NCBI GenBank assembly: GCA_028286865.1
Contig: JAQBQU010000007.1
Coordinates: 5,888-69,887 of the forward strand
From: Candidatus Kaiserbacteria bacterium
GTDB taxonomy: Bacteria; Patescibacteriota; Minisyncoccia; Phycocordibacterales; UBA2100
Direction: 5' to 3'
DNA length: 64,000 nt
In this document: positions 5,525 to 50,598 of the stretch, piece after piece
Position numbering within the stretch: position 1 is the first letter of the stretch
How the letters are laid out: each line of letters begins with the position of its first letter
Notes under the pieces: model-generated
What the model saw: only the letters and a program-made list of their open reading frames with translations
What the model was told of the DNA's origin: nothing
The model's database searches: none
Program-made: the position numbers and the translations under genes

Positions 5525-6948
5525 TCTTTTCTCGGAAAAAGATTCTCCGGTTTTTTGTTGGCGAGGATGGCGGCTTTTATCTTTTCATTTGTCTGCGGCA
5601 TAAAGGGATTGAGGAGGCGCACTATCTTATATAGCTCGGTCGCAAGTTCTGCGATAAGCGCTCTTCCCTGCGCCACATCAGTTTTGATGAGCTTAAAGGG
5701 CTCGGTCGTCGTGATCTTTTGGTCGAGTTTTTGGATCTCGCCCCACACGAAGTCGAGCACCTTGTTGTAATCGTATTTTTCTAATGCCTCGGTGTATTCC
5801 TGCGGAAATCCTACGGCTTCAGGGCGAGCGATCGGAGATTCCAAATGGGTTTCAGCCAATTTCATAATACGCGCGGTCACATTGCCGAGACCATTGGCAA
5901 GGTCTGCATTGTAGGATTCCTTGAATTTCTCCATCGTCACATCCGAGTCGTCGAATGGATGTACATGTCGCGCGAGGAAATAGCGCAGTGCATCAGCCCC
6001 GTACTCGTTCACGATCGCATACGGCTCGATCACGTTGCCGAGGGATTTCGACATCTTTTGGCCGCCCGAAGTAATGAAGCCGTGATATATCACCTTATCG
6101 GTCGCCTTGATCCCGGCAGACATGAGCATCCCCTGCCACATGATCGATTGGAAGCGCACCTGGTCCTTCCCGGCAAGCTGTAATGTCTCCCCTTCGGTCC
6201 AGAATGTCTTGAAATTTCCTTCGGTACCCGGCCAGCCGAGAGTAGAGATGTAATTGGTGAGCGCATCGAACCAGACGTACATCACCTGATGCTCGTCGCC
6301 CGGCACCGGCACCCCCCAGCTCATGCGCTTGGTCTCACGCGAGATGCTGAAATCCTCAAGACCCTGTTCCACGAACTTGACCGCTTCTTCGCGGCGCCAT
6401 TCCGGGACGATGACCCCCGGCTGCTTCAAGTATTCCAGGATGCGGTCCTGATAATTGCTGAGCATGAAGAAGTAATTTTCTTCTTCCACCTCGACGGGCT
6501 CCATGGTCGGATGGTTCGGGCATTTTCCGTTGACCAGATCGCTCTCCTTGATGAAGGCTTCGTCGCCGACACAGTAGAGTCCTTTGTATTTTTTCTTATA
6601 GATATCGCCTTTGGCGGCACAGATGCGCCATAGTTCCTGCGCGGCGCGCACATGGTCGTCGTCGGTCGTGCGAATGAACGCATCGTTTGAAAGGTCGAGT
6701 GCCTCTTTCAATTTCCGGAACTCCGCCGCATAGTGATCCACATATTCTTTTACGTCGCGGCCTTCTGAGGCGGCCTTCTGAGCGATCTTCTGGCCATGCT
6801 CGTCGGTGCCGGTATTGAAGAAGACCTTCCCCCCCATGAGGCGACGATAACGCGCAATGATATCGGCGTGCACGATCTCAAGCGCGAATCCGATATGGGG
6901 ATCGGAGTTTACGTACGGGAGCGTGGTGGTGATATACAGCGGCTTCAT
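5521..6948 (-). CDS. metG: Methionyl-tRNA synthetase, short form lacking the C-terminal tRNA-binding domain
   Basis: TTTLPYVNSDPHIGF (HIGH region), KMSKSLGNVI. Start at ATG 6948, in an ATGA overlap with the upstream gene. Confidence 0.95.
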   Translation of the reverse strand: MKPLYITTTLPYVNSDPHIGFALEIVHADIIARYRRLMGGKVFFNTGTDEHGQKIAQKAASEGRDVKEYVDHYAAEFRKLKEALDLSNDAFIRTTDDDHVRAAQELWRICAAKGDIYKKKYKGLYCVGDEAFIKESDLVNGKCPNHPTMEPVEVEEENYFFMLSNYQDRILEYLKQPGVIVPEWRREEAVKFVEQGLEDFSISRETKRMSWGVPVPGDEHQVMYVWFDALTNYISTLGWPGTEGNFKTFWTEGETLQLAGKDQVRFQSIMWQGMLMSAGIKATDKVIYHGFITSGGQKMSKSLGNVIEPYAIVNEYGADALRYFLARHVHPFDDSDVTMEKFKESYNADLANGLGNVTARIMKLAETHLESPIARPEAVGFPQEYTEALEKYDYNKVLDFVWGEIQKLDQKITTTEPFKLIKTDVAQGRALIAELATELYKIVRLLNPFMPQTNEKIKAAILANKKPENLFPRKE

Positions 6949-28048: not shown

Positions 28049-28471
28049 TTATTCGGTGGCTGCAGCTTCGGCTGCCGGCTCTTCTGCCTCGACTTCCGCC
28101 TTCGCGACATTCGCTGCGGTCATGAGCTTGGTGCGGCGGAGCTGGCGGCGAGCTTCACGGGCGACCTTGTCGCGGATGAAGTAGAGTTTCGCGCGGCGGA
28201 CGCGGGCACGCTTGAGGAGTTCGATCTTGTCGATCATAGGAGAGTAGAGCGGGAAGATCTTCTCGACTCCCACGCCTGATGCGACGCGGCGGACCGTAAA
28301 GGTGCCTCCCGCCTCAGTACCGTGCTTGCGGGCGAGAACGAGCCCTTCGAAGGCCTGGAGGCGGGTCTTGCCCTTTTCCTCGATCTTCTGGAATACACGC
28401 ACTGTGTCCCCGGGACGGAGGTCCAGGTTCTTGCGCTCTTCCATGTTTACCGGCGATATTGTGATGGCCAT
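28049..28471 (-). CDS. rplS: 50S ribosomal protein L19
   Basis: LRPGDTVRVFQKIEEKGKTRLQAFEGLVLARKHG is the L19 signature. Start at ATG 28471; the track ORF extension runs into tRNA-Val. Confidence 0.93.
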   Translation of the reverse strand: MAITISPVNMEERKNLDLRPGDTVRVFQKIEEKGKTRLQAFEGLVLARKHGTEAGGTFTVRRVASGVGVEKIFPLYSPMIDKIELLKRARVRRAKLYFIRDKVAREARRQLRRTKLMTAANVAKAEVEAEEPAAEAAATE

Positions 28472-28523: not shown

Positions 28524-28610
28524 TGGTCACGAATATTTGATTCGCCGCCGCTCATCAAATTTCTCGACCCCGCCTCGCGGTCGCTCAAGCTTGAGCGACA
28601 TCGCTCCGAC
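28524..28610 (+). repeat. Mosaic hairpin repeat, copy B
   Basis: tggtcacgaata-tttgat..ccgccg..atcaaa-tttctcgaccccgcctcgcg-gtcgctcaag/cttgagcgac-atcgctccgac. Confidence 0.8.
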
Positions 28611-28650: not shown

Positions 28651-28658
28651 CTATCGTG

Positions 28659-28731
28659 TGCACCCTGCAGGACTCGAACCTGCGACCTTTTCAGTGTAAA
28701 TGAATTGCTCTACCAACTGAGCTAAGGGTGC
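28659..28731 (-). tRNA. tRNA-Val (TAC)
   Basis: Manual fold: acceptor GCACCCT/AGGGTGC, anticodon loop TTTACAC, T-loop GGTTCGAGTCC. Confidence 0.9.
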
Positions 28732-37340: not shown

Positions 37341-38606
37341 ATGAAAGATACTGACCTGAGGGTACTGACGGTCGACGGCGGTGCCCGTGGACATGGGCTC
37401 CACTGTTCGATCCGGAAGAGTCCACGTGTTTCGCGCGCATTCTGCACTCCCGGCAACGGCGGCATTCCGGACCCTGATCGTCGCTCAGTGAAAGACACCG
37501 ATATCGACGGCATTGTCCGGCTTGCACAAGACCTGCAGATCGACCTCGTCGTCGTAGGTCCTGAGGCTCCGCTGGTGGCAGGGATCGTCAATCGGCTGCG
37601 GGCCGTCGGCATAGCGGCGTTCGGGCCCACGGCAGACGCTGCGGTACTTGAAGGCAGCAAGATCTTCACGAAGGCCTTCTGTCGGCGGCATAAGATCCCG
37701 ACTGCTGCGTTCCGCATCATCCGGAACTTCGAGCAGGCCGAAACGGCCATCAAGGAAAGCGGATTCCTCGTCGTCAAAGCCGACGGACTCTGCGCTGGCA
37801 AGGGCGTCACTGTCGCAAAAACCGAGGCGGGAGCGATCGAGGCGGCGCGCGCACTGCTCGTCGATAACATTCACGGCCCCGCCGGCTCGAGCATTCTCAT
37901 CGAAGAGTGTCTTACGGGTCGCGAATGTTCGATCATGGCATTCTGTGACGGACACAATGCGGTCCTCCTGCCGCCGGCCCGTGATTTCAAGCGTGCCGAG
38001 GAAGGCGACCGTGGACCGAATACCGGCGGTATGGGCTGCTATGCGCCCTTGCCGGACGTCGACGATGCACTGCTCGCTCGCATCAAGGACGAGATCATCA
38101 TGCCGACACTGCGCGGCATGGCTGAAGCAGGAACTCCGTATCATGGACTTCTGTACGCCGGCATCATGCTGACCAAGCAGGGGCCCATGCTCATCGAGTA
38201 CAACGCACGGTTCGGCGACCCGGAAACACAGACAGTCTTGCCGCTGATCGAATCCGACATAGTCGAATACATGCTCGGCACTTTGGAACTGTCGGGGCTT
38301 ACGAAGCTGCCGCCGCTGAAGCTGAAGCCGCTCGTGGCGGTCTGCACGGTACTGGCGTCAAACGGTTATCCCGGGAAGTACGAGACCGGGTTCCCCATCA
38401 CCGGCATCGAAGAGACGTCGTCGATGAAGTTCTTTCATGCGGGGACGGTTCGTTCACCGGCCCTCGTGACCTCCGGCGGGCGCGTACTGAGTTGTGTCGG
38501 ACTCGGCGAGAACTTCTCGATTGCCCGTGAACGGTCCCAACGTGGCGCCGACTTCGCCACCTTCTCGAACAAGTTCTATCGCAGCGACATCGCCGCGAAC
38601 GCGTAA
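37341..38606 (+). CDS. purD: Phosphoribosylamine-glycine ligase
   Basis: ATP-grasp PurD pattern (VVGPEAPLVAGI, VKADGLCAGKGV, GPNTGGMGCYAP, IEYNARFGDPETQ, SGGRVL). Start at ATG 37341, 9 nt after AAGGA. Confidence 0.92.
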   Translation: MKDTDLRVLTVDGGARGHGLHCSIRKSPRVSRAFCTPGNGGIPDPDRRSVKDTDIDGIVRLAQDLQIDLVVVGPEAPLVAGIVNRLRAVGIAAFGPTADAAVLEGSKIFTKAFCRRHKIPTAAFRIIRNFEQAETAIKESGFLVVKADGLCAGKGVTVAKTEAGAIEAARALLVDNIHGPAGSSILIEECLTGRECSIMAFCDGHNAVLLPPARDFKRAEEGDRGPNTGGMGCYAPLPDVDDALLARIKDEIIMPTLRGMAEAGTPYHGLLYAGIMLTKQGPMLIEYNARFGDPETQTVLPLIESDIVEYMLGTLELSGLTKLPPLKLKPLVAVCTVLASNGYPGKYETGFPITGIEETSSMKFFHAGTVRSPALVTSGGRVLSCVGLGENFSIARERSQRGADFATFSNKFYRSDIAANA

Positions 38607-38629
38607 TAGAAGATGTTCTCGTACGACTT

Positions 38630-38664
38630 AGTCCCGGCTCTTCTCGGCCGGGACTTTCTTTTTT
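38630..38664 (+). terminator. Intrinsic terminator after purD
   Basis: agtcccggc-tcttctc-gccgggact followed by a T-run. Confidence 0.8.
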
Positions 38665-38682
38665 GGCGGAGGGGGTGAGATT

Positions 38683-38770
38683 CGGTCAGGAATATCTCTT
38701 CGGCCGTCGCCGAAGAGATTTCACGACCCTGGCTCGCGAATCGCTTCTACTGAAGCGATGACGCTCCGCC
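38683..38770 (+). repeat. Mosaic hairpin repeat, copy D
   Basis: cggtcaggaata-tctcttcgg-ccgtcg-ccgaagaga-tttcacgaccctggctcgcg-aatcgcttc-tac-tgaagcgatg-acgctccgcc. Confidence 0.85.
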
Positions 38771-38821
38771 TTTCGAATCTCACACGAAGCATGCACCGCA
38801 TACTTCTCCCCTCCGCCTATG

Positions 38822-38848
38822 AAAAAGGCGCCTTACGGCGCTTTTTCT
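38822..38848 (-). terminator. Bidirectional hairpin terminator downstream of tRNA-Ser
   Basis: aaaaaggcgcc-ttac-ggcgcttttt. Confidence 0.75.
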
Positions 38849-38853
38849 ATCGG

Positions 38854-38940
38854 CGGAGGGGGTGAGATTCGAACTCACGGTCCCGTTTCCGAGACGACAG
38901 TTTTCAAGACTGTTCCATTAGACCACTCTGGCACCCCTCC
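38854..38940 (-). tRNA. tRNA-Ser (TGA)
   Basis: Manual fold: acceptor GGAGGGG/CCCCTCC, anticodon stem-loop ACAGT-CTTGAAA-ACTGT, long variable arm, T-loop GAGTTCGAATCTC. Confidence 0.9.
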
Positions 38941-39027
38941 CTATGTACTTCTGTACCACTGTTGTACCACGGCGCGCATTCTTTCGCATGTCTCGATTTA
39001 TCTCGGTGATACAATGTGTGAAAAGAT

Positions 39028-39501
39028 ATGCCCGAAAAAAATATCTCTTTGCGCTGGACCGCATACGAGCACGAGCATATCGAGCGCGGCTCGGATTGGT
39101 TCTGGGCGCTCGGCATCGTCGCGGTATCACTTGCGATCGTGAGCATTCTCTTCCACGATACGCTCTTTGCGCTCGTGGTCCTCGTGGGCGCATTCGCCCT
39201 CGGACTTCTCGCCAACACGCCGCCGGACATCGCACACTTCGAGCTCTCGGATAAGGGCATCCGCGTCAACGACCAGCTCCATCGCTACAGCGAGATCATC
39301 TCGTTCTGGGTGGAAGACGAGCACAACGAACATCGACCGCTCCTGCTCGTCGATACCACCAAGGTGATGGCTCCAAATCTCATCATTCCGATCGAGCACA
39401 TCGACCCGGCGGTAGTGCGCGCATACCTGCAGGAGCGAAGCGAAGAGGTCCATATGAAAGAACCCTTCGCCCACAAGATCCTCGAATTCTTCGGCCTCTA
39501 A
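39028..39501 (+). CDS. Hypothetical two-TM membrane protein
   Basis: 157 aa; two adjacent TM helices, then a soluble domain; no family recognised. Confidence 0.55.
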   Translation: MPEKNISLRWTAYEHEHIERGSDWFWALGIVAVSLAIVSILFHDTLFALVVLVGAFALGLLANTPPDIAHFELSDKGIRVNDQLHRYSEIISFWVEDEHNEHRPLLLVDTTKVMAPNLIIPIEHIDPAVVRAYLQERSEEVHMKEPFAHKILEFFGL

Positions 39502-39504
39502 AAA

Positions 39505-41880
39505 TTACTGAGTGATGGTGAACACATCGGGAGTGTACGCCTGCCCGTTATATACCGGACTCGACAGACTGCCCGTATACAGATCCGCTTCAATGCCATA
39601 CGTCCTGCCCGGAACGAGGTCGGTACCGCATACAGTGTCGGAAGTCACATCGCAGGTGTCGGTAGCGCCGGGCAATGTCCATGCATACGAGCCGCTTGCG
39701 GCCAGTTCAGCACTGATCAATCCGGTGACAGAGCCCAGGTGTACGTCATAAAGCCAGAGTGACATTTTTGAGCCGCTCGGAGTGCCGGTGGCGGTCCACT
39801 GGATCGTGTTGACTGCCCCACGCGCGATCGACTTACCGTCAGACGATGAGGTCACGGTCAGGCCCCCGCCGGTGCCGGCCCCCGCACCGCCGACAGTGAT
39901 CGTCGTCGTCGCATCACGAGTCCCGCCCCCGAGCGTGACGCAGTGGAGCAGGATGTCGGTCGTTTGTGTGACCGGCGAGGTCGTCGCCATACCGTTGACG
40001 CTCTTGTTCGCGGCATTCGCTGCCGTGAAGTCCGCTTGCTGCGGGCTCGATACCACGCAGGAGCTCATGCCGCTCGTTACCCAGCCCACGGTCGAGAGTG
40101 TACTGGTCGCAACTACTTTCGGATTGGCAAGAAGCACGATCGAGGGTTTCGATATCTGTACCGAGCATGATGCTTGGCCGGTGAGGTTCTGATTCGTGCA
40201 CGTGAGGCCGAACGTCGCGGTATTCGAACCGGCCGGAGGTGCCGCGATCACGGTCGTCGTCGAGCCGGAGGTGGCACCGAGTGTTGCAAATCCGCTGCCC
40301 GAGCTTCCGGTCGCATTCGTGCATCCGTACGAAAGTGAGACCGACATGCCCACATCAGCCACCTGCGGCTGGCACGAGAGCTGTGCGGTCGGAGTGACCG
40401 CGGTCGTTCCATCCGGTGCGCACTGCCATCCGGTGGTACACGCAGCGCCATTGGATTGATTCGTAGTGACGGGCTTGATCGTATAGCCGGCACCGCATCC
40501 CGTCGCAGGCTGCGGAGGTGCGGCGGCGCAGGTGTTGGACGTCGCACCCGGAGTACACGCCACCGGAGCGATAGGAGGCGTCGGCTGTGAGACCGGAACA
40601 TAGCCGTTCACTTGGTACTGATACTGCATCTGCTGCTGTTGATACTGGTACTGCTGCATCTGGTATTGATACTGCTGCAACTGCGACTGATATTGCTGCT
40701 GCTGCGCGGCGTAGGCGCTCGGATCCGAAGGGCACGCGGCGCCGGTTGCAGGAGTTCCCGCCCCCGTGAGGCCCTTGGCTAGCCCGCCAAGAAACCCTTG
40801 GAGCGCTTTTCCAATGTCACCAAGTCCGCCCCCGGTATTTGGTTTTTCCGGAGTTTGAGGTGCCGGAGTTCCGCCGCTCGGTGGCGTGAAGGTGGATTTC
40901 GGTATCTCTTTCCCGTTGGGATCTACGCAGGTTCCGCTCTTAGCGCACACGGATGCGACACCCGGCTGATCTCCTCCCGGATCAATGCCGCCTGGGTTTT
41001 GTGAAATGTCCTGTTTAATATTCGCGGCAAAATCTGTCTTTTGTTTTTCGAGCGCAGCAAGTTGTTGTTGTTGTTTTTCAAGATCCTGCTGAGCCGCCCG
41101 CGTTTCATTGATGCGACTGGAATCGTCCGATGCTTGCAGTTCGTTCAACTTCGCTTGAGCAGAGTCCACCTGAGCCTTCTGCGCTGCTATTTGCGGATCA
41201 ATCTGGCTGGCAAACGCCTCATTAAGAGAAGCCTGGGTTTGAGCATCAGCCGCGCCGAGACTCACAGTGCCCTTTAGCAGGTCTGGACTGAGCGTTGATA
41301 CGGTCTGAGATTCAGTGGCCCACGTCTGAATGCTTTGGCCTCCAGTTTTATTTTGTACCGGACCGCACTTCCCTGCCGAATCACAGAACGTGGTCTTACA
41401 AACTCCCTCCTCTGAGTTGGTATCTCCCGGCGTAGACTGAATGTCACCCTGACCCTTGGCATTCATTGTCACTTTTGTCACCTCTCCGACACATTTATAA
41501 GATTCAGGGGCTGTGCGCGGATCAGTATTAGGACTTTTAGCTTTCACTGCATTGCCTAATGCCTCATCGTAGATCGCTGCGATACATTTATTATTTTCTG
41601 TCACGTTCGCCGTGAATGGCTGATTGAGTGCCGGCGGCTGACCATATGCAGCGGCAGCATCTTTCTTTGCTTTTGTACATTGAGCGGTCACCTCATTTGC
41701 ACTGGATCCGGCAGCTGCAGGGCGTGCGGTTGGTAGTGGTGTTGATGCTTGAGCAGATTGCGAACTCGGATTCGTATTCGGCAGAAGGATCTGGGTGAAA
41801 ACGAGAAGGATACTGAGAATGCCCACTAATGTGAGTGCGGCCACTATAGAAGAGCCGCGACTGAGTGAGCGCTTGAACAT
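39505..41880 (-). CDS. Large secreted/anchored protein: coiled-coil, Gln/Tyr-rich tract, C-terminal Cys-bracketed Ig-like modules
   Basis: 791 aa from ATG 41880 (MFKRSLSRGSSIVAALTLVGILSILLV signal anchor). The track ORF's 61-codon N-terminal extension reaches 42063 (14 nt short of tRNA-Arg) and precedes the signal anchor, so it is unlikely to be real. Confidence 0.7.
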   Translation of the reverse strand: MFKRSLSRGSSIVAALTLVGILSILLVFTQILLPNTNPSSQSAQASTPLPTARPAAAGSSANEVTAQCTKAKKDAAAAYGQPPALNQPFTANVTENNKCIAAIYDEALGNAVKAKSPNTDPRTAPESYKCVGEVTKVTMNAKGQGDIQSTPGDTNSEEGVCKTTFCDSAGKCGPVQNKTGGQSIQTWATESQTVSTLSPDLLKGTVSLGAADAQTQASLNEAFASQIDPQIAAQKAQVDSAQAKLNELQASDDSSRINETRAAQQDLEKQQQQLAALEKQKTDFAANIKQDISQNPGGIDPGGDQPGVASVCAKSGTCVDPNGKEIPKSTFTPPSGGTPAPQTPEKPNTGGGLGDIGKALQGFLGGLAKGLTGAGTPATGAACPSDPSAYAAQQQQYQSQLQQYQYQMQQYQYQQQQMQYQYQVNGYVPVSQPTPPIAPVACTPGATSNTCAAAPPQPATGCGAGYTIKPVTTNQSNGAACTTGWQCAPDGTTAVTPTAQLSCQPQVADVGMSVSLSYGCTNATGSSGSGFATLGATSGSTTTVIAAPPAGSNTATFGLTCTNQNLTGQASCSVQISKPSIVLLANPKVVATSTLSTVGWVTSGMSSCVVSSPQQADFTAANAANKSVNGMATTSPVTQTTDILLHCVTLGGGTRDATTTITVGGAGAGTGGGLTVTSSSDGKSIARGAVNTIQWTATGTPSGSKMSLWLYDVHLGSVTGLISAELAASGSYAWTLPGATDTCDVTSDTVCGTDLVPGRTYGIEADLYTGSLSSPVYNGQAYTPDVFTITQ

Positions 41881-42076
41881 GCCTGAATCATGCGCCCCAA
41901 TAGAGACATGCGCAATGCATAAATGGCGCCACATGTGGAAAAAAGCGAAATAAATGCTACATTTCTGGCAACGGTCCGATTGCCATGCTTTCGAGAACGT
42001 GAACGCTCCCGTAAGCAAAGCTTTCGGAAACGTCATTCGGGTGGAATGAAAGTAAACTTTCATCCCTCCCTCAATA

Positions 42077-42151
42077 GCTCCCGTCGTTCAACGGATAGGA
42101 TGCATCCTTGCGGAGGATGTGATGTAGGTTCGATTCCTGCCGGGAGCACCA
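42077..42151 (+). tRNA. tRNA-Arg (GCG), CCA encoded
   Basis: Manual fold: acceptor GCTCCCG/CGGGAGC, perfect anticodon stem CATCC/GGATG, loop TTGCGGA, T-loop GGTTCGATTCC. Confidence 0.85.
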
Positions 42152-42155
42152 AAGG

Positions 42156-42190
42156 CACAAACACCCACCCTTCGGTGGGTTTTGTGTTTT
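42156..42190 (+). terminator. Intrinsic terminator after tRNA-Arg(GCG)
   Basis: cacaaa(c)acccacc-cttc-ggtgggttttgtg followed by TTTT. Confidence 0.75.
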
Positions 42191-42197
42191 GGTGCTG

Positions 42198-42281
42198 GGC
42201 GCAGCGATGTTTTGCGAGTACGCAAAACCGCGAGCCGGGGTCGCGAGGCATTTGCGCGACGGCGCAAATGAACTTGTGACC
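42198..42281 (-). repeat. Mosaic hairpin repeat, copy E (inverted orientation)
   Basis: Reverse complement reads ggtcacaagtt-catttgcg-ccgtcg-cgcaaatg-cctcgcgaccccggctcgcg-gttttgcg-tact-cgcaaaac-atcgctgcgcc. An extra ggtcacgaata lies at 42297-42307. Confidence 0.85.
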
Positions 42282-42307
42282 GCAAAAGCTCCCCCGTATT
42301 CGTGACC

Positions 42308-42337
42308 GCAAAAAGCCCCGATACGGGGCTTTTTGCA
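42308..42337 (-). terminator. Bidirectional terminator after the 725-aa gene
   Basis: aaaaagccccg-ata-cggggcttttt. Confidence 0.8.
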
Positions 42338-42363
42338 TGAGCAAGCTTATTTCGTCAGCGCTA

Positions 42364-44541
42364 TTACTGCGTTTCTACTTCGCAGATGGCCATTTGCAAG
42401 GGCGCCAACGTCTTGGTGGTACCGATCCATATATTGTTTGCACCTTTGGTCATCGTACATGAATTCGATACTGTCCCTGATTCGTCGTACGAGGTAAAAG
42501 TATACGAAGCACCAGCACTGGGCTTGATCCACAAACCCAACTCCGATTTAAAGGTTACGGATCGTGCGACAGTGTCATTATTGAGGACGAATATAAGCAG
42601 TTTCTTCACGCTCCCCGTCTGGAGTTGATAGGCCTTGATGAATACCTTTTGATATTCAAATGGTCCGAGATCGAAGATTGATCCTCCTATCCAGCTTGTC
42701 TTGGATGTCCTTATGAAAGGAGTGACCGGCTCAGAGAGCACCGATTCGCCGATAAATGTGCCGTTACTGAAGTAGTCATCAAACTCCTTGTGCAGCGATG
42801 AGAGTTGTTTAAGCGTCTTCGACATAACCGGATTTTCAGACACCAAGGCAGACCCGTTTGACTTATTGGGTTTTGACAGCATGACATTCATGTACAAGCC
42901 GTCGATGAAAGCCATTTTCGCGACGCGCGGGGAGCTCACGTCGGCGTTGATCCGGGGGTAGCGGACCGCGTTTAGGAATGGGCCGGCTTCGATGTAGTCA
43001 TTCCACGCCCATGTGTAATCGAGCACGGCCGCGGCCCGTTCGAGATTCATGACCGGCTCTCCGGAGATGGTCGCTTGAGCGTAGTTCGGTACGGGTTTCT
43101 TATTTCGCAGTTGTTGCATGGTCGATACAAGGCCGCCGCTCATGAAGCCTGCGTCTTGGAATTCATCCATGGTAAATGAAGGAGCGCCTTTGTTAGCCCA
43201 CGTGAGCATCGAGTTGATGATGGCGGTCCTGTTGGGAAATTGGTCCTCAAAGAGCACCGGTGACTGAGAGGTCGGGTACGTTTCGGAAATGATCAGCGGC
43301 GACCCCATGGCGGGTAGCAGCTCCGAGTGGTAGGTCCAGAATGTGGAAGCAGAAGTCGGATCATACGCATAGGGCGCAGCTGCTGATACGGGCGGCCTGG
43401 CTCCAGGAACCGGCGGAGGTGTCGCCGGCACGCAGGCCGACTCCGTGCACGGGGTACCAATGTCCAGGGAGAAGCTTGCAAAAGCTGAGACGTTGACGCC
43501 TATGCTGCGAGCTTTTTGTACTCCGGCAAGAAACTGGGCTTCCGTCCCGGCGCGTGGATCGAGCACGATCGGCAGGTGACCAACGATGTTCGAGCCAAAC
43601 AGTACGAGCTCATCGAGCCCGTTGGCTTTTGCGTCCTGGGCGATACGGCCAATATCGGAAAAAGTAAAATTAGGTTTGGGCGCCCATGATGATTCAAGGC
43701 CTTCCACCATCCAGACGGTTTGAAATCCGAGGCCATGTACCACATGCGAAGGCACCGGCGTCTGACGTCCTAATGCGCCCACCTGCATCTTGCGGACAAA
43801 CTGCGCAAATGGCTCGATACCCTTTGCCCAGCCGCCACGATGGAAGGTGAAAACAAAGTCATCGCTCTGCCACTTTTCTCCCGGCTTCAGTGTGATGTTG
43901 TTCTGCCATGCTATCCGTACTACATTTTGTCCGGCTGCGCGCGATACCACGAGCGGCGCATGCAGTATCGGCGAGCCATTGAACATATCTTCGTCTCCCC
44001 ATTTCTTTTGATAGATACTGATGCCGCCCTGGTATCCCCCGAAGTCGATCCACCGGAGGGCATACCGTTCGTAAATGTCGGTGCCGCCATACACTTGCGA
44101 AAACGGCGCCCCTGCAAACGGATTGATGACACCGAGTGCCGTACGAAGCTCTGTTTGATCACCTGAGATCGGTTGCATGCCCTGCAAGTCGGGAAAGTAG
44201 ACCGGCCCGATGTCGGATCCGCTCACGTTTTCCACCGATGCGTTAAGACACACAGACTTTCTATCAGCAGTGTCTGTAACACCAGTGTCGCAGGTCGACC
44301 AGGTGACCTTGAGTCCGTTGGGTTGTGAGTTCGAGTTTATTAGAAAGGACGAGTCCGGAGTGACCAACGAGTGTCCGAGCTCCTCGATCTGGCCGGTTGC
44401 ATCGTCGGCCTTGAAATAGAGGCCGTTGATATTTTCGGTAGCGGCCGAGGCGATCATCGGCACCGCGAGCTGAAGTATGGCCGCCAATAACAAGAGCCGA
44501 TACTGCGCTGCTGGTTTGCTGAGAAGAGTAGTGGGATTCAT
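42364..44541 (-). CDS. Secreted hypothetical protein (N-terminal beta-rich domain plus possible TIM-barrel-like region)
   Basis: 725 aa; signal peptide (LLLLAAILQLAVPMIASA). The N-terminal part is paralogous to the C-terminal part of the upstream 602-aa protein. Confidence 0.65.
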   Translation of the reverse strand: MNPTTLLSKPAAQYRLLLLAAILQLAVPMIASAATENINGLYFKADDATGQIEELGHSLVTPDSSFLINSNSQPNGLKVTWSTCDTGVTDTADRKSVCLNASVENVSGSDIGPVYFPDLQGMQPISGDQTELRTALGVINPFAGAPFSQVYGGTDIYERYALRWIDFGGYQGGISIYQKKWGDEDMFNGSPILHAPLVVSRAAGQNVVRIAWQNNITLKPGEKWQSDDFVFTFHRGGWAKGIEPFAQFVRKMQVGALGRQTPVPSHVVHGLGFQTVWMVEGLESSWAPKPNFTFSDIGRIAQDAKANGLDELVLFGSNIVGHLPIVLDPRAGTEAQFLAGVQKARSIGVNVSAFASFSLDIGTPCTESACVPATPPPVPGARPPVSAAAPYAYDPTSASTFWTYHSELLPAMGSPLIISETYPTSQSPVLFEDQFPNRTAIINSMLTWANKGAPSFTMDEFQDAGFMSGGLVSTMQQLRNKKPVPNYAQATISGEPVMNLERAAAVLDYTWAWNDYIEAGPFLNAVRYPRINADVSSPRVAKMAFIDGLYMNVMLSKPNKSNGSALVSENPVMSKTLKQLSSLHKEFDDYFSNGTFIGESVLSEPVTPFIRTSKTSWIGGSIFDLGPFEYQKVFIKAYQLQTGSVKKLLIFVLNNDTVARSVTFKSELGLWIKPSAGASYTFTSYDESGTVSNSCTMTKGANNIWIGTTKTLAPLQMAICEVETQ

Positions 44542-50246: not shown

Positions 50247-50260
50247 GTAAGACAGCTTAG

Positions 50261-50303
50261 TGGTCACACATACTTTTCTGCTGAAAAGTTGCGCGACTCC
50301 GCC
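50261..50303 (+). repeat. Type-2 hairpin module, copy 1
   Basis: tggtcacacata-cttttc-tgctg-aaaag-ttgcgcgactccgcc. Same frame as 50413-50455, with compensatory stem changes. Confidence 0.75.
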
Positions 50304-50315
50304 GGTTCGCACAAG

Positions 50316-50402
50316 TGGTCAGGAATAATTATTGAGCCGTCGCTCAATAATTTTCACGACCCTGGCTCGCGGTTCGGCGAGCTCGCCTCACATCGCTCCG
50401 CC
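50316..50402 (+). repeat. Mosaic hairpin repeat, copy C
   Basis: tggtcaggaata-attattgag-ccgtcg-ctcaataat-tttcacgaccctggctcgcg-gttcggcgag/ctcgcctcac-atcgctccgcc. Confidence 0.85.
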
Positions 50403-50412
50403 TCGCGCCTTG

Positions 50413-50455
50413 TGGCTACACATAATTCTCTGCTGAGAATTTGCGCAGCCCCGCC
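50413..50455 (+). repeat. Type-2 hairpin module, copy 2
   Basis: tggctacacata-attctc-tgctg-agaat-ttgcgcagccccgcc. Confidence 0.75.
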
Positions 50456-50480
50456 TCGACCCCGCCCGGGTCTGCGGCCC

Positions 50481-50528
50481 GCACACGAATGAAAAACAGC
50501 ACCACAGTGCTGTTTTTCATTCGTGTGC
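50481..50528. other. 22-bp perfect hairpin abutting and overlapping the tRNA-Lys 3' end
   Basis: gcacacgaatgaaaaacagcac-caca-gtgctgtttttcattcgtgtgc. The inner part resembles a bidirectional terminator (A5/T5 flanks). Confidence 0.8.
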
Positions 50529-50598
50529 GCCCACCAGGATTCGAACCTGGGACCGTCTCCTTAAAAGGGAGCTGCTCTACCAACTGAGCTATGAGCGC
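50526..50598 (-). tRNA. tRNA-Lys (TTT)
   Basis: Manual fold: acceptor GCGCTCA/TGGGCGC, anticodon loop CTTTTAA, T-loop GGTTCGAATCC. Confidence 0.9.

Follow-up and report, generated by a model that had tools for sequence, protein, structure and literature searches.

Five copies of a small two-hairpin unit lie in a 64 000-nt stretch of DNA from Candidatus Kaiserbacteria bacterium (GenBank assembly GCA_028286865.1, contig JAQBQU010000007.1, positions 5888 to 69 887), here called the window, downstream of tRNA genes and in one case of the ribosomal protein gene rpsR. They had been predicted from the sequence alone to be a mosaic, modular family with conserved single strands and covarying hairpins. 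This description holds. All five copies are present at the coordinates listed below, can be aligned with one another, and are recovered by a covariance model (CM). The unit is 85–86 nt long and consists of two hairpin modules, hp2 (positions 1–39) and hp1 (positions 40–86). The model, R1, was trained on 33 units of equal length, 31 from other genomes together with window copies B and C, and was used to search the entire window with filters off. Copies D, E and A had no part in the training; the matches of B and C are in part built in. The units and related pieces in the window are as follows.

2239–2324, − strand: unit A, hp1 allele rich in G·A, part of the cassette at the rpsR 3' end (CM match 2240–2324, 67.1 bits, E 4e-12)
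28525–28610, − strand: unit B, class 2 (CM match 28526–28610, 91.2 bits; training member)
38684–38770, − strand: unit D, class 1, inside a T-loop-like context (CM match 38685–38770, 84.7 bits)
42198–42281, + strand: unit E, class 2 (CM match 42198–42280, 84.7 bits)
42296–42307, + strand: solo remnant of the 3' end of a further unit (GTATTCGTGACC), then the same flank, CGCAAAAAG (read from the sequence)
50263–50310, − strand: shortened unit, the left-hand 'type 2' module, with hp2 deleted and the hp1 loop AGCA (CM 21.4 bits, E 0.013)
50317–50402, − strand: unit C, full two-hairpin core, class 2 (CM match 50318–50402, 93.5 bits, E 1e-17; training member)
50415–50478, − strand: shortened unit, the right-hand 'type 2' module, with both hp2 and hp1 shorter (CM 34.2 bits, E 3e-5)

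The search of the whole window found exactly five full units, with E values from 1e-17 to 4e-12, and two shortened ones, and no convincing score was seen anywhere beyond these. The 20-nt linker occurs four times in the window at three or fewer mismatches, against zero expected from 100 shuffles. The two modules flanking unit C had been taken for a distinct, type 2 design, but in the CM alignment they are shortened type 1 units, the one at 50415–50478 spanning model positions 1–85 with internal deletions. Copy A, which had been called degenerate, instead carries a G·A-rich hp1 allele common to eight other loci (L008, L034, L051, L062, L076, L083, L105 and L118).

Fold and folding strand

Two alignments were examined, one of the 33 units, which is ungapped and blind to structure, and one of 126 units found by the CM in 100 loci, which is fitted to the model. 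As the first has no gaps, no bias towards any structure is possible. In it, 92.5% of cells are paired, compared with 27–41% when the partners are slid by one to three columns, and double changes occur at 23 of the 33 pairs (217 double-change cells); none of 500 shuffles matched any of these measures. The 126 units gave 92.6% of cells paired, double changes at 31 of the 33 pairs and 984 double-change cells. The stem arms originally described are correct, although they do not vary freely, being drawn from a pool of recurrent alleles. One pair lies inside what had been regarded as a conserved linker, where position 2 pairs with position 38 as G:C, C:G or U:G.

Among the paired cells there are 57 G·T and no A·C pairs, and therefore only one strand folds. 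This is the reverse complement of the strand on which the units had originally been written, and it is the sense strand of the upstream gene. The G46·T82 wobble and a bulged A are invariant, tandem G·A pairs are frequent, and the loops are conserved, AGYA on hp2 and GACG on hp1 in 26 of the 33 units. Read on this strand, the modules always stand in the direct order hp2-hp1, and the unit begins with GNCGSAGCG and ends with ..YGTGACC; the two ends (GNCGSAG... and ...GTGACC) are not inverted repeats of one another. Two subfamilies are distinguished, A-type with CCTGACC and G-type with YGTGACC. When the window copies were folded as single-stranded DNA, the consensus structure was obtained with z values between −3.2 and −6.8 (−4.1 for C and −6.8 for D), and −1.4 for copy A.

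Several known kinds of element were considered and rejected as the identity of the unit. The motifs do not fit a hammerhead or hairpin ribozyme core and Rfam was silent. ARAGORN was also silent, and the acceptor-like stem that could be drawn for a tRNA-like gene pairs the discriminator and CC and decays between loci. Integron attC sites are excluded as the R''/R' (RYYYAAC/GTTRRRY) and L boxes are missing from the unit and its flanks, and the context is one of housekeeping genes. The differences between copies are not adenine-specific, as they would be in the template and variable repeats of a diversity-generating retroelement. There is no T-run after hp1 of the kind found in an intrinsic terminator, and separate hairpins were called upstream of units D and E. 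A sigma-70 promoter inside the unit was rejected, the only candidate, on the antisense strand, being a weak −10-like GATAAT that lacks a −35. CRISPR, T-box and a peptide-encoding open reading frame (ORF) were dismissed on reading the sequence.

Target genes and cassette layout

In 79 cases, involving about 20 isoacceptor types, a unit follows a same-strand tRNA gene at a distance of under 260 nt, and its orientation is always that of the upstream gene. In the window, the neighbouring tRNA genes are those for tRNA-Val (unit B), tRNA-Ser (D), tRNA-Arg (E) and tRNA-Lys (the C array). The targets other than tRNA genes are tmRNA, a candidate topA, rpsI (S9 Pfam match), another small ORF and, for window copy A, rpsR. 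The candidate topA is a 738-aa ORF that was tentatively read as such from its Cys-rich C-terminus, and Pfam gave no confirmation. The units are thus found at several loci, as a dispersed intergenic family would be, but they occur in a single orientation and in association with the 3' ends of tRNA, tmRNA and essential genes.

On the sense strand the order of components is always the same, namely the end of the functional gene, a terminator hairpin, an inverted copy of the gene, the unit, and a relic direct copy. The resulting cassette is approximately 130–220 bp long and contains no ORF. The inverted copy spans the insertion point of the target. The shortest of the flanking direct repeats is 3 nt and the longest about 60 nt or more, and all of them extend to the gene end. 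In class 1, represented in the window by D, the relic extends from T-loop C56/G57 to the 3' terminus and past it, and a third small hairpin splits the inverted copy. Direct repeats of the gene end of 17–28 nt, the length typical of class 1, were seen at about 30 tRNA and tmRNA loci, including that of D. In class 2 (B, C and E) the cut is after tRNA position 72 and the repeat is short, CAC(AA). When the target is a protein gene, the cassette carries the final codons and the stop, and at the candidate topA loci the repeat includes about 60 nt or more of the final coding sequence and has diverged. The terminator loop was CTGC in 36 of 98 cases and CTTC in seven. The features surrounding the units in the window are as follows.

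2216–2238, − strand: relic of the last rpsR codons and the stop (LLPYIQK, stop)
2325–2336, − strand: cassette A, inverted copy of the target
2341–2355, − strand: cassette A, small hairpin
2362–2394, − strand: palindromic terminator that includes the rpsR stop
2395–2592, − strand: rpsR, target of cassette A (S18 Pfam match)
28658–28731, − strand: tRNA-Val(tac), 47 nt upstream of unit B
38665–38683, − strand: relic of the tRNA-Ser 3' end in direct orientation, abutting D on its 3' side and covering T-loop C56/G57 to the terminus
38771–38783, − strand: cassette D, inverted copy of the T-loop and T-stem (read from the sequence)
38787–38805, − strand: cassette D, hairpin hp3 (read from the sequence)
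38808–38817, − strand: cassette D, inverted copy of the acceptor 3' strand (read from the sequence)
about 38821–38851, − strand: tRNA-Ser terminator (called at 38841–38828)
38852–38940, − strand: tRNA-Ser(tga), functional target of cassette D (ARAGORN, Rfam)
42077–42151, + strand: tRNA-Arg(gcg), 46 nt upstream of unit E
42163–42180, + strand: terminator before unit E (terminator scan)
42191–42197, + strand: inverted copy of the tRNA-Arg end before unit E (read from the sequence)
50479–50524, − strand: tRNA-Lys terminator, a long palindrome (read from the sequence; the hairpin is also in the Rfam scan)
50525–50598, − strand: tRNA-Lys(ttt), target gene of the C array (ARAGORN, Rfam)

The relic in cassette D is a 19–26-nt repeat of 38852–38871. 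The rpsR relic differs from the functional copy at four positions, all of them third codon positions. Each boundary of the cassette is preceded, on one and the same strand, by a short G..C motif. At the left boundary, before the functional copy of the repeat, this is GGTTC in T-loops and GGGAC or GGTC in protein genes, while in the other tRNA cases the boundary is at position 72; at the right boundary, before the relic, it is always the GACC that ends the unit. Immediately 5' of the unit is a segment complementary to target sequence on both sides of the cut, and in three candidate topA loci and in L115 it fits the functional copy better than the relic. The flanks of a unit pair at 7.6 of 10 positions and mismatched flanks at 6.2 of 10. 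Of the tRNA genes with a unit, 58 of 78 have an inverted copy of their 3' end; of those without a unit, 68 of 100 lack one. Many of the exceptions to this association carry variant units.

Some other features of these regions were noted. The 46-nt near-perfect palindrome at 50479–50524 is a bidirectional terminator between tRNA-Lys and the unit array, and its arms run into the tRNA 3' end. Most tRNA genes in the window and related loci lack a full encoded CCA, and many end in ..AC then A. Downstream of tRNA-Val(gac) in L093 there is a tandem 33-nt repeat that ends with the tRNA 3' end (GTAGCTTTATGCAGAGGTTGGGTATCGCCCACC) and is present in at least two copies, a different kind of duplication. 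Unit B is also upstream of the start of rplS (L19 Pfam match), and the L19 protein encoded at 28052–28471 (− strand) has an Ala/Glu-rich C-terminal extension of about 30 aa. No Pfam domain was found in the 852-aa and 725-aa proteins encoded at 39508–42063 and 42367–44541 (both − strand); the former is 100% identical to JWM46_246, and homologues of it were found only in related Patescibacteria, one of them labelled PilV-like.

Distribution, turnover and mosaicism

The unit family is not specific to one genome but is spread across the Patescibacteria, where searches with the CM and with a degenerate linker pattern located the same unit at more than 100 loci. Nearly all of the matches to the pattern listed from a species-level genome collection were in Patescibacteria, and the groups among these were Paceibacterota, Kaiser-, Adler-, Nomura-, Taylor-, Zambryskii-, Lloyd-, Giovannoni- and Falkowbacteria and some Saccharibacteria. 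The few in high-GC bacteria were within genes and were read as chance. Variant units in which GAGCCATG replaces GAGCGATG in the 5' linker are found in tRNA 3' flanks in L024, L039, L076, L087, L100, L108 and L111. The regular expressions used had missed these, and the counts given here underestimate the family. Another, unrelated insert of two hairpins, GGGGTCG-hairpin-CGTGGAGGAAGGA-hairpin, was seen downstream of tRNA-Ser in L123 (8165–8440) and downstream of tRNA-Arg(ccg) in L060, in the same layout of inverted copy, insert and relic. It was not seen by model R1, and its occurrence in the same architecture suggests a superfamily of such hairpin modules.

No match to the motif was found among the viral contigs of IMG/VR, nor by blastn against plasmid and phage collections. 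When the window was scanned with Rfam 15 at the gathering threshold only tRNAs matched, and E-value scans of the D and C regions returned only spurious miRNA and sRNA hairpin matches far below threshold. Elsewhere, LOOT RNA (RF03000) was found above the gathering threshold at 6513–6628 in L043, a contig labelled as Patescibacteria. A search of the literature for Patescibacteria tRNA-linked repeats, miniature integrative elements, RAYT and the linker sequence found nothing relevant, the reports that turned up being of anticodon-loop group I introns (PMC13011429) and of mitochondrial hairpin elements. The two-hairpin module, which had not been recognised as a known family when it was predicted, thus appears to be undescribed in the searchable literature.

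Syntenic loci in relatives were retrieved through homologues of the 852-aa protein encoded in the window. At the tRNA-Arg(gcg) site there is no unit in L126 and L127, one in the window and L122, and two in L123 and L125. At the tRNA-Lys(ttt) site the relatives have one unit and the window has three modules. At the tRNA-Ser(tga) site, the window has a class 1 cassette, L123 has the different two-hairpin insert, and L122, L125 and L126 have nothing. The presence/absence polymorphism that would be expected of an inserted element is therefore seen, with 0–3 units at orthologous sites, but target duplications of fixed length are missing. At the tRNA-Arg site, CGCA was considered as a simple 4-bp target duplication and dismissed, because the GNC at the unit 5' end covaries with its partner and other loci have no such repeat. 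The 'empty' tRNA-Arg site of L126 retains six bases from the start of the unit (AGCGCA) together with the terminator and inverted copy, and is best read as a microhomology deletion. Tandem and shortened copies occur, and in L095 and L110 arrays are nested, with a class 1 cassette in a tRNA gene whose relic keeps its own terminator and class 2 unit.

Identical hp1 or hp2 sequences of 20–33 nt recur across genomes, including distant metagenome-assembled genomes (MAGs), and across targets, in varied combinations. One hp1 allele is found exactly at tmRNA in L038 and tRNA-Arg in L047, and with one mismatch at tRNA-His in L108 and in L125. The hp1 of window copy D is that of the tRNA-Lys unit in L126 except for a single compensatory double change. 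Since the hairpin alleles recur in different combinations, the modules at positions 1–39 and 40–86 reassort.

Rearrangements were also seen at these sites. Between close relatives, the block of tRNA gene, terminator and unit is inverted relative to the neighbouring genes at tRNA-Arg (window 42077–42281 compared with L122, L123 and L126) and at tRNA-Lys (L123, 618–822, compared with L126, 657–863). A synteny break falls exactly at the tRNA-Ser 3' end, with PurD or a flavokinase downstream; a PurD-based metagenome scan gave one locus, which was not syntenic. In L125 (4003–8161), genes for a 1167-aa LexA-domain protein and a large serine recombinase lie downstream of tRNA-Ser with no unit involved, possibly a conventional island at the same tRNA gene.

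Possible mode of spread and relationship to known systems

We consider it an even chance that the units are the core of non-autonomous mobile cassettes of single-stranded DNA, akin to the repetitive extragenic palindromic (REP) sequences and bacterial interspersed mosaic elements (BIMEs) and to IS200/IS605 elements, and moved in trans. The core would fold in single-stranded DNA on the lagging-strand template, where a trans-encoded transposase or recombinase, of HUH type or otherwise hairpin-binding, may recognise it. The inverted copy at the foot of hp2 would act as a guide, pairing with the target and selecting the site. The mobile entity would be the entire cassette, and the displaced original 3' end would be left directly downstream as the relic. 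The gene would not be harmed by insertion 3' of GGTTC in a T-loop, since the remainder of the tRNA and a terminator are supplied anew at the start of the cassette, and excision would rejoin GGTTC to the relic, restoring the gene. The hp2 and hp1 modules would recombine at the central linker to give the mosaics. A more specific proposal, which we regard as doubtful, is that the cassettes represent a new guide-bearing, gene-end-restoring class of 'seamless' single-strand DNA transposon made up of a replacement 3' end with its terminator, an internal DNA guide of 5–22 nt that matches the target, such as a tRNA T-loop, over the cut by complementarity, and the two-hairpin core for an enzyme acting in trans. 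A new target would be reached via a changed guide and carried gene end.

Several observations weigh against mobile cassettes of this kind. No transposase or recombinase recurs near the units. Clustering of the ORFs around 100 loci gave only housekeeping families and a serine recombinase at three loci, not adjoining the units, and in a PHROG scan of 55 window proteins there was no integrase or transposase among the 25 most-matched families. Neither the window nor about 0.8 Mb of sequence surrounding units, a sample of approximately 1% of each genome, showed a RAYT, the transposase associated with REPs. A tblastn search of about 1 Mb with an IS608 TnpA query found nothing, which is nearly uninformative. 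The two hairpins of the unit are dissimilar, unlike the two ends of IS608, and the target motif is low in information and inflated by tRNA conservation. Selfish repeats are not usually conserved over so broad a phylogenetic range as the linkers are. The sole 'empty' site, that in L126, looks like a deletion, and no virgin target was seen. The long palindromes centred on terminators could stem from template switching during replication rather than represent a designed guide. Finally, 57 G·U to no A·C pairs is also a classic signature of RNA structure.

This last point bears on whether the units are instead a structured RNA, a cis-acting 3' extension or a small RNA made by read-through of highly expressed tRNA, tmRNA and ribosomal protein genes, which we think unlikely. 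Possible roles would include 3'-end protection or processing, mimicry of a tRNA minihelix in class 1, or a part in a mobile element as its RNA intermediate or scaffold. The G·U pattern would be expected of an RNA as much as of DNA, so this explanation keeps appreciable weight, and the constant orientation relative to the upstream gene, the invariant G·U, tandem G·A and conserved tetraloops, and the preservation of sequence and structure across the Patescibacteria are all in keeping with it. The class 1 context can also be drawn as an acceptor stem, hairpin and T-arm, but these outer stems have decayed at many loci. About half of the tRNA genes have no unit. The units lie beyond strong bidirectional terminators or between convergent ones. 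In a terminator scan of 38500–42450, D and E are beyond called intrinsic terminators, with D between two convergent ones; A is between the terminators of the genes for EF-P and rpsR; and B is between the tRNA-Val terminator and TTGCCC-17-TATAGT, which by eye may be the rplS promoter. No promoter-like motif is conserved in or before the unit. The position of the terminators upstream, the variable copy number of zero to three at the same tRNA gene in close relatives, the tolerance of shortened copies and the lack of an Rfam match together favour a fold in single-stranded DNA, and the folded molecule is thus probably DNA rather than RNA. Of the structured RNA and the REP-, BIME- or MITE-like element originally put forward, a DNA element resembling REPs and BIMEs is favoured. 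A miniature inverted-repeat transposable element (MITE) was rejected, as there are no terminal inverted repeats and no target duplication of fixed length.

Movement by a tyrosine recombinase (Xer-like or integrase) would make the cassettes miniature integrative elements or their scars, with the inverted copy and relic forming a hairpin attachment (att) site that has the unit at its apex. The targets, namely tRNA T-loops and 3' ends, tmRNA, rpsI and other gene ends, together with the repeats of the gene end, are the hallmark of attB and attP in the Williams-type classification of integrase targets, and the element does supply a replacement 3' end and terminator. The arrangement of an inverted copy, about 85 nt and a direct copy also resembles that in phage CTXphi, where attP2 and attP1 are separated by 90 nt. 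However, there is no integrase in or beside any of the approximately 100 cassettes, integrases are usually site-specific whereas one core is found at more than 25 different targets, repeat length is variable, 3 nt at the least and about 60 nt or more at the most, with only CAC(AA) in class 2, and viral contigs, phages and plasmids gave no matches. At the candidate topA loci the functional and relic copies are each other's closest relatives within the genome, and local duplication therefore fits better than an imported attP. This explanation is accordingly rather improbable. We give still less credence to an account without mobility, in which the triplications arose by template switching at palindromes and the unit is a DNA structure serving the host (such as a site for gyrase or topoisomerase, a signal for priming, or a barrier to forks or transcription) that was spread by transformation and homologous recombination. 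The palindrome is continuous through arbitrary trailer sequence and centred on the terminator loop, which is CTGC in over a third of cases, L126 has the triplication without a unit, and the units are at 3' ends of highly expressed genes, often between convergent genes as BIMEs are. The spread of one core to so many unrelated targets, the consistent boundary motifs, the strict strand asymmetry of the fold and the identical hairpin alleles at non-homologous loci in distant genomes are left unexplained by it.

Patescibacteria make up a large share of bacterial diversity and have genomes of about 1 Mb that are thought to be poor in mobile DNA. A unit was found beside about half of the tRNA genes sampled and beside tmRNA, though the sample was chosen by the presence of units and this fraction is biased upward. 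If the cassettes are mobile, they offer a way for selfish DNA to inhabit the ends of essential genes harmlessly and hint that a hairpin-binding enzyme is directed to its target by base pairing, a property that could be put to use in programmable insertion. They create tRNA-fragment pseudogenes, and at tRNA loci they are found where synteny breaks and small inversions occur. They could also act as a lineage marker, and merit masking or annotation in MAG pipelines.

Small mobile two-hairpin modules with conserved structure are known from mitochondria as double-hairpin elements, GC clusters and repetitive hairpin elements, which are scattered in compact genomes and sometimes adjoin tRNA genes (PMC2800124, PMC4478555). 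Their sequences are unrelated to the unit, their hosts are organelles, and no duplication of the target end or inverted-copy layout has been described for them. Like REPs, BIMEs and REPINs, the units are short, non-coding, extragenic palindromic modules at gene 3' ends and between convergent genes, are mosaics of module types with conserved linkers, and are presumed to be acted upon in trans as folded single-stranded DNA. They differ in having no GTAG-type head and in that their dissimilar modules are always in direct order, whereas REPs alternate in BIMEs. The linkers of the unit are conserved across a superphylum and those of REPs within species, the units are associated with the ends of tRNA, tmRNA and essential genes, where the target end is duplicated in both direct and inverted form, and the RAYT partner of REPs was not seen in the sequence searched around them.

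IS200/IS605 elements move by a strand-specific peel-and-paste process, insert 3' of a short target and have a guide sequence 5' of the hairpin foot. The cassettes share with these and with palindrome-associated transposable elements (PATEs) subterminal hairpins that are strand-specific and have conserved irregularities (G·T pairs and a bulged A), and the lack of a target duplication of fixed length. As in IS200/IS605, the boundaries are 3' of short motifs that all lie on a single strand, although here the motifs are low in information and confounded by tRNA conservation, and a segment complementary to the cleavage or target site adjoins the foot of a hairpin. In the cassettes the left and right hairpins are dissimilar, the putative guide is 5–22 nt rather than 4 nt, a replacement gene end and terminator are carried, and no tnpA or tnpB was seen. 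The integrative elements of tRNA and tmRNA genes and the gene-less cis-mobilizable elements (CIMEs) likewise enter at a T-loop, 3' end or protein-gene end, restore the gene end and leave a relic downstream. In hairpin att sites such as CTXphi attP and integron attC, as in the unit, the site is set by structure and a single strand folds. Against this, the cassette is only 130–220 bp with no integrase and a single core serves many targets, and the unit has no R and L boxes or dif-like arms and is not in arrays of ORF cassettes. From these comparisons, the cassettes would appear to operate most nearly as REPs, BIMEs and REPINs or miniatures derived from IS200/IS605 do, with targets resembling those of the integrative elements of tRNA and tmRNA genes.

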